This document shows positions 57,436 through 64,000 of a stretch of 64,000 nucleotides of DNA, piece by piece. Both the position numbers and the translations under genes were made by a program. Every line of letters starts with the position of its first letter. Position 1 is the stretch's first letter. Location: NCBI RefSeq assembly GCF_024298765.1, contig NZ_CP101210.1. One strand, given 5' to 3'. The stretch is from Escherichia coli. Lineage in GTDB: Bacteria; Pseudomonadota; Gammaproteobacteria; Enterobacterales; Enterobacteriaceae. Under the pieces are notes generated by a model. It was not told the DNA's origin. It searched no databases and saw only the letters and a list, made by a program, of their open reading frames with translations.

Positions 57436-57681
57436 AAGATATGTTCCGTTATGCGCAGCCCACAATGCGTCCTGCCCGTGAATGAGCTGACGTGTTATGG
57501 CTTGCGGATGAGATTGATGGAATAAGTGAAGAACTGAAGCAGAACGGGAAGATAAGGGACAGAACACCGGATTCAGGTTCAGGATGAATGATCTCCGTTG
57601 ACTTCAGTTCACATCATTAATCAATGCGGTAAGTTTTTACCGACGGAGTGTTTCCAGGAGCGGAGGCTCAGGCCTTAAGCT

Positions 57682-58248
57682 TCAGAAGTGAGGCTTACGA
57701 GGACGCCCTGCAGCAGGACGTTCAGGAACTTCATTGCAGCCGTAGGCACACAGCCCGTCTTTTTGTTCTTCTTTCGCCAGATAATGCAGGGCACCGCGAA
57801 TATTATCGATGCTTTCAGGATCGTTGTGGCGCACAGGAATGTTGATGTTGTATGCATAATGCGGCTGATATGTACAGCGGTGCGCCGAACCACAGTTATA
57901 CGTAATTGCCTGCCAGCATTCCGCTATCCGCTCCGCAAAGGGATATATTTTTTTAACCCTCTGACGATCGATCCAGAAAACGACATGCGCATGAAAACCA
58001 TGATCAGCCGTCCATTCAATCACCCAGAAGAAACCAACGATATTTTCAAATTGTTCCACCTGCTCCAGCAGCATACGCAACTGTAATTCAAGCCAGCGAT
58101 GATCAGGTTGTAAGAAATCGGGCGTATCTTTCCTGTAGAAGAAATCCATCCGTAAGGCCCGCAGGCAGGAATAGCGTGCCATCATTTGATTGATGTGATT
58201 GTCAAGTAAAGCGGTAAAAAACCAGTTTGGTGTGTAAGATTTAGGCAT
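57682..58248 (-). CDS. YfjJ/YagK (inovirus Gp2-like) family protein
   Basis: 188-aa ORF MPKSYTPNWFFTALLDNHINQMMARYSCLRALRMDFFYRKD...; paralogue of 56860..57435 and 61862..62593. Confidence 0.6.
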   Translation of the reverse strand: MPKSYTPNWFFTALLDNHINQMMARYSCLRALRMDFFYRKDTPDFLQPDHRWLELQLRMLLEQVEQFENIVGFFWVIEWTADHGFHAHVVFWIDRQRVKKIYPFAERIAECWQAITYNCGSAHRCTYQPHYAYNINIPVRHNDPESIDNIRGALHYLAKEEQKDGLCAYGCNEVPERPAAGRPRKPHF

Positions 58249-59665
58249 GTTGATGACTCCTGAAAGTTAATGATGTTTTAAGCTCTGTGAGCGAATTAAT
58301 GCTTTCGCTCATAATCAGATCTAAAACGGTAATAACTTACAGATGGTATTTATCAGGCATGCTGTAACAGAATGGATACGACGGATTATTAACGACACAC
58401 AGCGTTGTGCTGAAGGGTATGAGTTATCTGATGGCATTGTCTATAGAGATGAGATAAACGAGGTGCGAAGAAAATACAGATTCAATACAACACAGTGAAA
58501 TACAGAAAAATACGAACTGTAATCCCGCTGCCAGGCGGTTAGGAAACATATTACAACTATAAGCTCATGATTTGTAAATTTGCTCTCAGTGAGTCTGAAA
58601 AAACGTTTATAAGGTCACCACAATAAACTCACACGCGCTTATTCAATCTGTTTTCCAGGATATGAACGTTAACGACACACGATAGCATAAGACAACATAC
58701 AATGGATGAATAATTTTCACCCAGTACCTTAAACAATACAACCGGCAACAAATATAATCAGAAATTCACTCTGTTAATTCTGTTGTTTATCCTGCGCTGT
58801 TAAACATGACGGAATCATGGATACCTTATCAAAGAGTAAACATTCAGTTAATCTGTGATGACAGAGAAATTGTTTCCAACCAGAATAGTTAAAACACTTC
58901 AGATAAACAATCATTGTTAAGCAAATACAGTTCATGATGGATAAGATTAAAATCAATTGCTGTTTCACTGAAAATGAGAACAGATGGATATCAGCAATAG
59001 CGTAGTAGAGAATAACTTATCCGAACATCATATGAGTTACAGTAATTATGATTGAGGGGGATGGAGTGGATACGATAACAAGAGTAAATAAAGACAGAGT
59101 AAAAGTAAAGGGCAAGTGTAATAATAGTAATAAACCTAAATTAAAATTATCCATGTTTGATGTAAAAATAATAATATACTGACAACCATGAAGGTAAGAA
59201 AAAGAGAGTGCAGGTATCAGGAAGATCTCAGGATATGAAGATTCCCACAGCACAGATTTAAAATTAGTCGAATATAATAAATTTAAAAACCTTAATTAAA
59301 ATGTAATCTCATCCATGGTTAACATGCTCCTGAAAAGGAAAGTTACAAATACCGTATGCTACCAACTAATTACAACAATGATATATGTACATTCAGTAAG
59401 AATACAGATAAAATATTAATACCAACTTCCAGTATCAAGATCGTATCGCGAACTTCAGATGCGCTATGAGGCAGTTCAATTTTTAACTTTCGTTTTCCTC
59501 TTCCTCCCTGGCTTCATATGCATAAGCGACTTGAAAGACCCGATGATAGTTACAATTTCAGGTTGTGGCATGACGATCAATTTGTAACTGAAACAATGAA
59601 CGGTAACGCTGCCATATAAACATCAAAATGCGAGCATTACAGCGACATTGAACCGATTAGATGTA

Positions 59666-61861: not shown

Positions 61862-62593
61862 TCACCTGCCATCCAGCAAACGCCCCGGCCCACGACTGCA
61901 ACCATAATTACGTTGCCCGGAACCGTCATGCTGCTTCGTCTCATATTTCACGAGATAACTGGCTCTGTTCCGGGCTTTCTGCATCGCTTCCACATCACCA
62001 CGCTTGATCCAGAGAACAGCGGCTTCACCAGACTTTTTGTCTGAAGCCTTCCAGGTATCAGAACATCCACCCGACAAAGGCGTGTCATCGGAAGAAGGGC
62101 GAACATCAGACGATGCTGGTTTACGGGAAGGCGTCCACCTGGAAAAATGGACCAGGCCATCGCCTTGCCAGGGCTCAAGATGCAGGGCGCTGCACCATGC
62201 CTCCTGGATCATCGTCGCCAGCGAAGACGGTTCGCTGAAATCCCCGAGCGAGCACCAGGTATCTTTGTTGAGCAGTAATATCACGTGATAATGTTTCCTG
62301 CCATACATCTTGCCGAACTCCCGGCACCAGAAATAACCCAGGCTGGTTGCATGCACACGCTGATTGGCACATCTTTTTTTCCGCTGGTAAGCCTGAATTT
62401 TGGCTTTCAGGGATGCAAAAAAACGAGAAATCACCGCTGAATCCGGATCGGGATCCATGATGGTGACAGGCATATACTCAGGGAAACGTAAATCCACCCG
62501 GATTAACGAGACGGCACGGTGCTGCGCCAGGGCACTGTCGAGAAGGCTGTCAAAACGGGATAACCAGTAAGCATTGTGTATTGGTTGATTCAT
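61862..62593 (-). CDS. YfjJ/YagK (inovirus Gp2-like) family protein
   Basis: 243-aa ORF MNQPIHNAYWLSRFDSLLDSALAQHRAVSLIRVDLRFPEY...; CP4-like island backbone family. Confidence 0.6.
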   Translation of the reverse strand: MNQPIHNAYWLSRFDSLLDSALAQHRAVSLIRVDLRFPEYMPVTIMDPDPDSAVISRFFASLKAKIQAYQRKKRCANQRVHATSLGYFWCREFGKMYGRKHYHVILLLNKDTWCSLGDFSEPSSLATMIQEAWCSALHLEPWQGDGLVHFSRWTPSRKPASSDVRPSSDDTPLSGGCSDTWKASDKKSGEAAVLWIKRGDVEAMQKARNRASYLVKYETKQHDGSGQRNYGCSRGPGRLLDGR

Positions 62594-62984
62594 GATGAGA
62601 GATCTCCGTTGATTTGGATTGACTTCACATCATTAATCAACGCAGTAAAACTTTACGGCATCCGACATTGAGCAATACTACAACTCTCTGATTAAGAGTG
62701 ATTGAAACGGAACAAACCATCCCGGAACGAAAAGATAATCCTGCACACAGCAGCAAAATACGCAACAACAGCATGAATGGATTTAAAAACGACATGGACG
62801 ACGAGAAAAGTCTGAAGGGAAAAGGAGCCACAGAACATTCGAACAAAACACCAGAAATGCAACCAGAACGCTTCCTGGCAATGCAAATCAACAACAACGC
62901 CAAAACCTACAACTTAATCACACAACTCAATCACGGATGCGAATGACACGCTTAAAACCTGTTTACAGATAACGCCGTAACACG

Positions 62985-63026
62985 ATCATCACCATCACCA
63001 TCACCATCACCATCACCATCACCATC
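62985..63026. repeat. hexanucleotide microsatellite (ATCACC/CATCAC) of about 6.7 units
   Basis: Perfect tandem atcacc repeats 62988..63023 with partial flanking units; not in any long ORF. Confidence 0.9.
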
Positions 63027-63460
63027 AGAATCGATTTTCTCATCCCGAAAATGTTACGTTTCACTACGCACCATAAAAACGATTAACCATCGATAACGTA
63101 AATCTCATCTGAATCAAAACACCAAAACCGTTCATCACACTTTCGCAATGCAAGAAGAAACCTCATGACAAAAAGAATGACCTTACACGGAAAAGAAAAA
63201 CGTCAGGAATCGTTAATGCCTCAATCTGATTGTTATCAAAACATCCAGAAAGTCGTTTAACAGAATCGTCGTAAGCACATCGAAAAGAACGTCAGATTAC
63301 TTCAGGAAAGTTCGGGTTGATTTAGCGTAAAGATACTTTTCTCAAGCTAACGTCGAAACTCGAAATCTCAGGAAAGGTTAAACGTAACATCAGTAAAATC
63401 GAATAGCAGATTGATTGCTTAAACAGAAAGGTTTTACAGCAGCATTAAACTGATTTAGTT

Positions 63461-63494
63461 AACGTAAAGATTTACTAAACGTAAAGATTTACTA
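63461..63494. repeat. two perfect tandem copies of a 17-bp unit (acgtaaagatttactaa)
   Basis: Direct tandem duplication; related copies (ttagcgtaaagatac, ttagttaacgtaaagat) nearby at about 63316 and 63455. Confidence 0.85.
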
Positions 63495-64000
63495 AACTGG
63501 ATGTGTATCAGATCAAACAATGTGTACAGCAATGCTTAATGAAAATACTTGTAGAATTGTTTATGAGAAAGCGTGTATAACACTTACTGAAATGCTTAGT
63601 TAAATACGTGTATGTTTGGTAAAACACTTAAGTAAAATACGTGTATAGTACCATTCCCGACATTCTCAACATCTTCAGACATCCATGCAGACTGAGTGTT
63701 GATTTCAGTTTTTCACGGCCAGCATGGATCTTTACTGTTTAAAAAACATACAGATTTACTCTGAAATTATTTACCCAGGCCTCCCTGAAAAGACCATCCG
63801 GAGCATCCCGTTCGTCAGCTTCCATGTTGTCTTTTACCCCGGAAAGTGATCGCATTTTCCAGCCAGAATGACAGCCATACTGATTATGACGTCTCTCCGG
63901 CCCCTTCACATATAACATTCATGTCAGTCATTTCTTACTGCCTCACTCACCGGAATTCTCCATGCCGGATGAAGCAATTGTTCTGAACTGAGCAGAAGCA

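Follow-up and report, generated by a model that had tools for sequence, protein, structure and literature searches.

The cluster of direct repeats near the right end of a 64-kb stretch of Escherichia coli DNA (the window, to which all positions refer) is, on balance, best read as two-layered: a 17-bp slippage pair without a conserved role lies among older short boxes which may act as regulatory binding sites. We hold this combined reading with modest confidence. For the tandem pair taken by itself the case is strong, and we are highly confident that it is a neutral, recent duplication and not an iteron or operator array. The older boxes can be regarded, more tentatively, as putative cis-regulatory sites within the control or leader region of a leftward Gp2-YfjI module.

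Recent origin of the tandem pair

A preliminary description of this DNA, made from its letters alone, had reported two perfect tandem 17-bp units at 63461-63494, and both the sequence and TRF (63452-63497, period 17, 2.7 copies, 93% matches) confirm them. The units are 100% identical and stand head-to-tail. The trinucleotide AAC starts the 17-bp unit and also forms the bases 3' of the second copy, which gives short homology at the unit borders. Allowing up to three mismatches, the 17-mer AACGTAAAGATTTACTA matches four times in the 64-kb window (0.14 expected), a count that none of 100 shuffles reached. The related copies announced near 63316 and 63455 were found at 63317-63334 and 63454-63471, and an additional one lies at 63738-63760. 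Coordinates of all features are collected in Table 1.

Table 1. Features of the repeat-bearing spacer and the adjoining gene, with positions in the window.
Feature	Position	Strand	Remarks
243-aa YagK/YfjJ ('inovirus Gp2') family gene	61862-62593	-	spacer upstream; HUH (HYH) and YLxKxxxK motifs
Non-coding spacer in the island-family backbone	62594-~63790 (~1.2 kb)	.	conserved in position
CATCAC hexanucleotide microsatellite, 6.8 units	62987-63027	+	lineage-specific, copy number polymorphic; second slippage product in the spacer
Inverted AACGTAA pair (TTACGTT 63054, AACGTAA 63095)	63054-63101	.	further direct copy at 63381
Upstream related copy TTGATTTAGCGTAAAGAT with CGTAAAGA box	63317-63334	+	repeat family D3, identity 78-83%
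Ancestral copy TTTAGTTAACGTAAAGATTTACT	63454-63476	+	duplication template; repeat family D3 part 63454-63471
Perfect 17-bp tandem units AACGTAAAGATTTACTA, two copies	63461-63477 and 63478-63494	+	young duplication, polymorphic in the population
Five same-orientation GTGTAY boxes, consensus RAAAAYAYGTGTAT	63503, 63522, 63573, 63608, 63641 (segment 63497-63650)	+	include both AAATACGTGTAT 12-mers
12-mer AAATACGTGTAT, two copies	63602-63613 and 63635-63646	+	exact copies
Best-conserved core block TATAGTACCATTCCCGACATTCTCAACATCTTCAGAC	63644-63680	+	opens with -10-like TATAGT, without matching -35
Third related copy AAAAAACATACAGATTTACTC	63738-63761	+	family D2, 83%; within the final conserved block, ahead of the divergence of homologous islands at ~63790

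Homologous islands differ at the site of the pair. Of eight fully annotated homologues, some have a single unit there (…TAACGTAAAGATTTACTAAACTGG) and the others a 13-nt insert of unrelated sequence. A larger sample of 84 copies was assembled by searching metagenome contigs with an anchored pattern and adding the loci already collected; the search pattern fixes two flanking blocks, and variants without those blocks are unrepresented in it. Here, a single-unit allele of 73 nt occurred 17 times and a duplicated allele of 90 nt 8 times, one 17-bp unit being the sole difference between them. The remaining allele classes have one unit each, and copy states of the 17-mer were confined to one or two. 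Among complete genomes, 94 covered the duplicated allele and 887 the single-copy allele to at least 80%. A subject with one copy can reach no more than about 74% coverage when the duplicated allele is the query. The duplication is present in ca. 10% of the genomes with this allele class.

The pair had initially been described as part of an iteron-like array. Since it is missing from most homologous islands and from an otherwise identical allele, it is a young duplication and not a conserved array of binding sites. Copy number that varies between otherwise identical alleles and identical head-to-tail copies with border homology are what slippage-type duplication should leave behind, and replication slippage likely produced the pair, with a single ancestral unit giving rise to the 17-bp copy-number polymorphism. 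Slippage appears to be active in this DNA, since the same lineage carries the polymorphic CATCAC microsatellite, whose length in close relatives ranges from 4 to 6 units; one locus (L068) has this microsatellite together with a single 17-mer. In its perfect head-to-tail copies, its one- and two-copy alleles on otherwise identical backgrounds, its AAC border homology and the varying microsatellite in the same spacer, the pair resembles bacterial intergenic VNTR and slippage polymorphisms, although only two states occur here and the spacer also holds older retained boxes. The tandem repeat is thus an ordinary slippage polymorphism and at most, together with CATCAC, a lineage marker.

A widespread but poorly constrained spacer

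The repeats sit within a gene-free gap of ca. 2 kb in an island that extends from tRNA-Phe and an integrase gene to cadC; aac(3), genes for microcin H47 and a type I restriction-modification system also lie in it. E. coli ACN002 matches the window with 100% identity. To the right of the gap, past the end of the window, follow a hypothetical gene and genes for a GTPase, DUF905, DUF932, antirestriction, RadC/JAB, DUF987 and CbeA/CbtA proteins; defence-system models gave no matches to the neighbouring hypothetical genes. Other islands have the same order: the 243-aa Gp2 gene on one strand, next the spacer, and then variable genes ahead of the GTPase module. On the left side, fuller islands additionally hold YfjI (DUF3987), followed by another long gene-free gap, a 188-aa Gp2-type gene and an AlpA-like gene; the window's own island lacks yfjI. 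Scanning a collection of genome contigs with the Gp2 protein returned two close loci only. A cassette-type recombination site was considered and rejected, as AGATTTACT, which marks the left cargo boundary, is unpaired in six loci, with no counterpart at the boundary on the GTPase side.

A megablast search located 3,284 copies of the spacer at 74-100% identity, distributed over 1,877 of 5,426 complete E. coli genomes, that is, about a third of the complete genomes hold at least one copy of this ca. 1.2-kb DNA beside an HUH-type gene. It consistently adjoins the 243-aa Gp2-family gene. Homologous islands align between 62594 and about 63790, past which they differ according to type. The most widely retained sub-segment, 63321-63772, persists in copies whose left part has been swapped for other DNA. 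Segments of the spacer give differing relationships, which indicates mosaic recombination. Four plasmids carry the spacer, all from E. coli, and the one examined (H93), an IncI plasmid, has the same island gene set; a phage collection gave no match. The CP4-57, CP4-44 and CP4-6 regions examined in K-12 have no homologue of the spacer, and K-12 yfjJ and yagK are without such a spacer. K-12 YagJ, although of equal length, was set aside as an equivalent, being non-homologous.

The stretch had been called ORF-free, which holds: only ORFs of 33-39 aa overlap the repeats, and no ORF is conserved across 30 spacer variants. The annotated 82-aa ORF at 62698-62946 was rejected as a gene on account of frame-breaking indels in homologues. 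A hidden protein gene or pseudogene was likewise dismissed, with six-frame peptides of low complexity and no ORF kept in the 30 variants. Overall, the spacer is rich in indels, poorly constrained and diverged beyond the level of four-fold sites. Most pairwise comparisons of its non-coding segments give 75-85% identity, whereas four-fold sites in the Gp2 and GTPase genes on either side reach 83-99% in the same pairs.

This divergence speaks for the strongest rival to our own reading, namely that the whole cluster is a decaying minisatellite in an unconstrained, A+T-rich and probably H-NS-silenced spacer. Because divergence exceeds the synonymous level, the boxes described below could be the slowest-decaying parts of such an old minisatellite, and their conservation would be only apparent, resulting from shared recent ancestry and homogenization by unequal recombination. 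The many length classes, the gains and losses of units and the lineage-specific slippage products fit this picture, as does the lack of a promoter, terminator, hairpin, RNA family, ORF or A-tract phasing. Still, we consider it rather unlikely. Neutral decay does not readily account for a spacer found in the same position in thousands of island copies or for a sub-segment that survives replacement of the left part, and in local conservation several boxes are among the highest-ranking.

Short boxes older than the duplication

Conserved short blocks within the spacer comprise 41 bp beside the Gp2 start, GATAACGTAAA, ATCTGAATCAAAACACCA, AAAGGTTAAACG, TATAGTAYCA…CCGACATTCTCAAC and CAGATTTACTCTGGAATTATTT. 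The GATAACGTAAA block, in the region of the AACGTAA pair, is at least 90% conserved, and the CAGATTTACTCTGGAATTATTT block around the third related copy is conserved in 49 variants. Two further invariant blocks are fixed by the search pattern and were not counted as evidence of conservation. The core is A+T-rich, with a GC content of ca. 0.31.

Two box families, RAAAAYAYGTGTAT and AACGTAA(A), predate the 17-bp duplication. The consensus of the former was derived from 187 box instances pooled over 49 variants. At 63503-63646, GTGTAY reaches ca. 36 per kb compared with 0.30 per kb across the window, and the exact hexamer GTGTAT occurs four times against 0.41 expected, a count that none of 300 shuffles reached. 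With up to one mismatch, CGTAAAGA was found seven times against 1.1 expected (0 of 300 shuffles), and its match at the 63317-63334 copy recurs in nearly all 49 variants. The 12-bp motif reported twice in the preliminary description is an exact pair, with the first copy at 63602-63613; the second lies at 63635-63646, so that its position had been given ca. 10 bp too high (about 63645). This 12-mer, AAATACGTGTAT, occurs exactly twice against 0.34 expected, and 3 of 100 shuffles also reach two. Two sets of repeats had not been listed before, the GTGTAY array at 63503-63646 and the AACGTAA/TTACGTT boxes at 63054, 63095 and 63381.

Boxes of the RAAAAYAYGTGTAT type are present in 3-5 copies and in a single orientation. 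At least three copies of GTGTAY are intact in all 46 evaluable variants despite 20-25% divergence, a further point against neutral decay of the entire cluster. Their spacing is irregular (19, 51, 35 and 33 bp), and the segment that bears them, between AAACTGG and TATAGTA, falls into more than 10 length classes of 126-230 bp between island copies. The inverted AACGTAA pair is found in 20 of 30 variants with a loop of 34 nt. When 7-mers were ranked by conservation, nine box instances were counted, all beyond the stretch that is duplicated or fixed by the search pattern, and six of them lay at the 78th to 100th percentile of the local values. The other three, two of GTGTAT and one of CGTAAA, ranked low, in part a result of ambiguous alignment in the repeat region, where at least two of them lie.

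The preliminary description had held that repeats absent from homologous islands would speak against binding sites. Absence applies to most islands in case of the tandem pair, while the RAAAAYAYGTGTAT, AACGTAA(A) and CGTAAAGA boxes are present in all homologous islands sampled and are mostly better conserved than the surrounding 7-mers. Inside the 64-kb window the box and 17-mer motifs are confined to the spacer, with none elsewhere, for example near the island's int or alpA.

A possible control region

An operator cluster should show a motif that is over-represented and retained in homologues, and both were found for the boxes. This suggests a regulatory role, a reading drawn from sequence patterns. 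In our preferred explanation, the setting is an A+T-rich, indel-prone and fast-evolving backbone spacer of very common tRNA-associated islands with CP4-57-like genes. The spacer lies upstream of a leftward HUH-type Gp2/YfjJ-family gene, followed in fuller islands by YfjI, a second Gp2-type gene and AlpA. Its older boxes, RAAAAYAYGTGTAT and AACGTAA(A)/CGTAAAGA, may have arisen from ancient duplications of units and have been kept better than their surroundings, and they would bind a DNA-binding protein that controls transcription across the spacer, rather than serving as replication iterons. Candidate binders are the AlpA-like HTH protein, the YfjR-like HTH protein of other islands, the Gp2 proteins and H-NS.

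The operator reading is left without a promoter to act on, since no convincing sigma-70 promoter or terminator was found near the boxes on either strand. A sigma-70 consensus scan returned one promoter-like site against 3.5 expected and no intrinsic terminators, and a rough PWM scan of 62500-64000 on both strands, using an approximate matrix, returned only weak promoter-like sites. The last GTGTAY box overlaps the conserved TATAGT, for which a -35 element is absent. The interpretation offered in the preliminary description, that the repeats resemble binding sites for a replication initiator or a regulator and may be operators of an island regulator, is thus partly supported: the older boxes are enriched, retained and, judging by their sequence, compatible with binding of a regulator or initiator, but the tandem pair is young and no promoter was found. 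On the side of a replication initiator, DnaA enrichment, an IHF consensus, regular spacing and a conserved hairpin are all lacking.

A structured non-coding RNA was tried as another explanation and rejected, with an RNA folding z of -1.12 and a single local stem that is not kept in homologues. An Rfam scan with E up to 1 gave nothing relevant. Curved DNA was likewise rejected, as A-tracts show no helical phasing at 10-11.5 bp; AA/TT or AAA periodicity in this range was not detected either.

A possible replication or transfer origin

The gene beside the spacer makes a different reading worth weighing, in which the core, ca. 63050-63790, is a replication or transfer origin of an ancestral mobile element. 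The same-orientation boxes would then resemble the short iterons of SaPI/PICI elements or repeats beside a nick site, with the Gp2-family HUH protein and/or YfjI as the actors. We regard this as improbable. The more specific proposal, that the core boxes form an origin of a very common family of CP4-57-like E. coli islands, used by the island HUH nuclease with the DUF3987 protein, and that these 'pathogenicity islands' are degenerate satellite-like or mobilizable replicons, is slightly more so.

The neighbouring gene is Rep-like, and this favours an origin. Its 243-aa product matches PF11726 (YagK_YfjJ_C) with E 2.5e-35 and PF23343 (REP_ORF2-G2P) with 34.2 bits (cut-off 27.8). The HxH and YLxKxxxK motifs are retained in homologues with as little as 21% identity; in a set of 11 diverse ones, Y213, K216 and K220 never vary and H101 and H103 are near-invariant. 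With HUH and Tyr motifs intact, the gene qualifies by sequence as an HUH endonuclease gene. PDB matches to an AlphaFold model (pLDDT 77) are mainly HUH nuclease or origin-binding domains, all with E above 1e-3; with E 5e-3 to 0.1, the nuclease domains of NS1 and AAV Rep are weak matches. The 243-aa subfamily is essentially confined to E. coli, and nothing functional was found in the literature on YfjJ, YagK and PF11726.

Further points in favour of an origin are the core GC content of ca. 0.31 together with two families of short direct repeats, and the long non-coding region that Ff phages likewise have upstream of gene II. YfjI and AlpA stand beside Gp2 in fuller islands. DUF3987 has been used to define the primase gene of Vibrionaceae phage satellites, and deleting that gene lowered satellite replication (PMC10803314).

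Tests of origin features argue the other way. DnaA boxes are not enriched: TTATNCACA with up to one mismatch occurs twice against 0.7 expected, and 47 of 300 shuffles reach two. The GTGTAT boxes read TGTGNATAA-like and so have some resemblance to DnaA boxes. The IHF consensus WATCAANNNNTTR has no match in the stretch, GATC is limited to four scattered sites, and box spacing is irregular. Among stems of 7 bp or more, none recurs in every variant, the best one being present in 20 of 30 with a 34-nt loop. A single-stranded DNA promoter (Frpo-like) or long hairpin was rejected, as folding z was -0.76 and -1.12 on the two strands and no hairpin is conserved. The poor constraint on the spacer, the distance of 0.5-1 kb between the repeats and the Gp2 start, the K-12 yfjJ and yagK genes without such a spacer, the missing yfjI in the window's own island and the fold matches, all with E above 1e-3, also weigh against an origin.

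Known origins share some features with the stretch and differ in others. Like iteron plasmid origins (pSC101, R6K, P1, F oriS), the stretch has direct repeats of ca. 17-22 bp in A+T-rich, ORF-free DNA with a replication-type gene nearby. An iteron origin would have at least three conserved direct repeats at helically phased spacing with DnaA or IHF sites; here there are two perfect units, young and polymorphic, with one in most homologues, and of these features of spacing and composition only A+T-richness is present. Further, the neighbour is an HUH-type protein of the rolling-circle class and not an iteron-binding Rep. SaPI/PICI origins, in which short iterons surround an A+T-rich stretch beside pri-rep, are similar in their short same-orientation boxes of 6-8 bp, and the island family has the int-alpA-DUF3987 gene set. 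They differ in that the boxes here are of two unrelated kinds, irregularly placed over ca. 600 bp and poorly constrained, and in that the Gp2 gene separates the spacer from yfjI, which this island lacks altogether. The plus-strand origin region of gpII in Ff phages (f1/M13) also has long non-coding DNA directly upstream of a Gp2-family gene, with a T-rich gene-sense strand. In contrast to that region, and to rolling-circle origins or oriT sites in general, the spacer has no conserved hairpin or nick-site palindrome; it shows no significant similarity to the f1 origin, and relatedness at the protein level is only distant (PF23343, 34 bits). In gene content, K-12 CP4-57 (intA-alpA-yfjI-yfjJ ... 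yfjP-yfjQ ... TA) shares the backbone of AlpA, YfjI, YfjJ-family, GTPase, DUF932, antirestriction, RadC and CbtA-type TA genes, but its yfjJ points the same way as the GTPase module and lacks a long spacer. If the boxes were either an origin or the control region of the module, they would shed light on the regulation or the past mobility of these widespread islands.

Least likely of all, and in our view very improbable, is that the duplication itself created a rightward promoter with copy number as an expression switch: TTTACT(63471)-N16-TAAACT(63493) is the top plus-strand site in 62500-64000 (7.7 bits with the same rough matrix) and, with TTTACT 16 bp upstream of TAAACT, is present only in the duplicated allele, but it agrees with the consensus at 8 of 12 positions, falls below the threshold of the consensus scan, has only one- and two-copy states and is ca. 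1.1 kb away from the next plus-strand gene.

Distant Gp2 loci provide a last comparison. Homologues with 36-43% identity occur in Morganellaceae, in Brenneria and on one further contig, with Gp2 and AlpA adjacent. In Morganellaceae and Brenneria, Gp2/AlpA is divergent from a DUF932-containing module, which additionally includes a GTPase and an antirestriction gene in the former and RadC and CbtA in the latter. The gaps upstream of these Gp2 genes are 0.4-0.7 kb in Morganellaceae and Brenneria and ca. 0.5 kb in the third locus, much shorter than the E. coli spacer and without significant homology to it (best nhmmer E 1.2), which again speaks against an origin. By sequence, conservation of these particular boxes does not extend past E. 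coli. The non-coding DNA of the distant loci nevertheless holds repeats of its own, with ACACATTTTA occurring three times in Brenneria and three units of 22-23 bp beside a gene start in locus L095. Since these distant gaps have their own direct repeats, short repeats at this position appear to be a recurring theme.

Sequence features of the spacer

Within the ORF-free spacer upstream of Gp2-243, the 243-aa YagK/YfjJ ("inovirus Gp2") HUH-type gene, the 17-bp duplication gives rise to a promoter-like site, TTTACT-N16-TAAACT (window 63471-63498). This was the top plus-strand site of the gap when scored with a rough position weight matrix, with only 8 of its 12 positions matching. The left part of the spacer (window 62650-63300) shows strong strand asymmetry, its plus strand being composed of 40% A, 26% C, 15% G and 19% T. 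RNA read rightward through this region would be C-rich, G-poor and rut-like, while RNA read leftward would make a poor substrate for Rho. The spacer further carries a CATCAC hexanucleotide microsatellite which varies from 4 to 6 units across close relatives and is absent from other island alleles; no start codon was found ahead of its His-His reading frame.

Coordinates of features in the window and in the compared loci
Feature	Location	Strand	Details
CATCAC microsatellite	window 62987-63027		6.8 units
Second HUH-type gene	window 57682-58248	-	188 aa
Second ORF-free gap	window 58249-59665		A-rich, ~1.4 kb; upstream of the 188-aa HUH-type gene
329-aa hypothetical protein	L001 14861-15850	-	adjoins GTPase gene
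407-aa hypothetical protein	L002 5477-6700	-	adjoins GTPase gene
176-aa hypothetical gene (WP_000778605.1)	L004 3116-3646 and L010 3116-3646	+	within ~1.1 kb left-spacer replacement
Direct repeats, ACACATTTTA x3	L094 4293-4369		intergenic, adjoining gene start
Direct repeats, three 22-23 bp units	L095 3980-4043		intergenic, adjoining gene start

Variation among islands and distant loci

Some islands (L004 and L010) retain the right core of the spacer but have ~1.1 kb of other DNA in place of its A/C-rich left part. Next to the backbone GTPase gene, islands L001 and L002 encode hypothetical proteins which are distant homologues of each other (25% identity, E 1e-3) and had no match in Pfam or PADLOC. 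Since the GTPase gene is divergent from both of their genes, these proteins look like backbone rather than cargo.

Two distant Gp2 loci, L094 (Brenneria) and L095, carry direct repeats of their own. In the Brenneria intergenic gap, TGATTGCTTAACCAGGAAG (L094 4620-4638) matches the invariant E. coli block TGATTGCTTAAACAGGAAA at 17 of 19 positions. Its nhmmer E value is 1.6, and with respect to the Gp2 gene it is oriented the other way round from the E. coli block. A Ser/Pro/Asp-rich insertion of ~45 residues (residues ~150-190) is present in the E. coli 243-aa Gp2 subfamily (gene at window 61862-62593, minus strand); this insertion is predicted to be disordered (pLDDT <50) and is missing from the aligned homologues of 189-208 aa.

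Sequences upstream of other island genes

The gap upstream of the second HUH-type gene contains neither GTGTAY nor AACGTAA boxes. Directly upstream of the Gp2-243 start, window 62594-62656 shares 76% identity across 63 nt with 57583-57640, which lies upstream of a 191-aa hypothetical gene. Because these upstream sequences resemble each other, the two genes may have a common leader or translation-initiation region.
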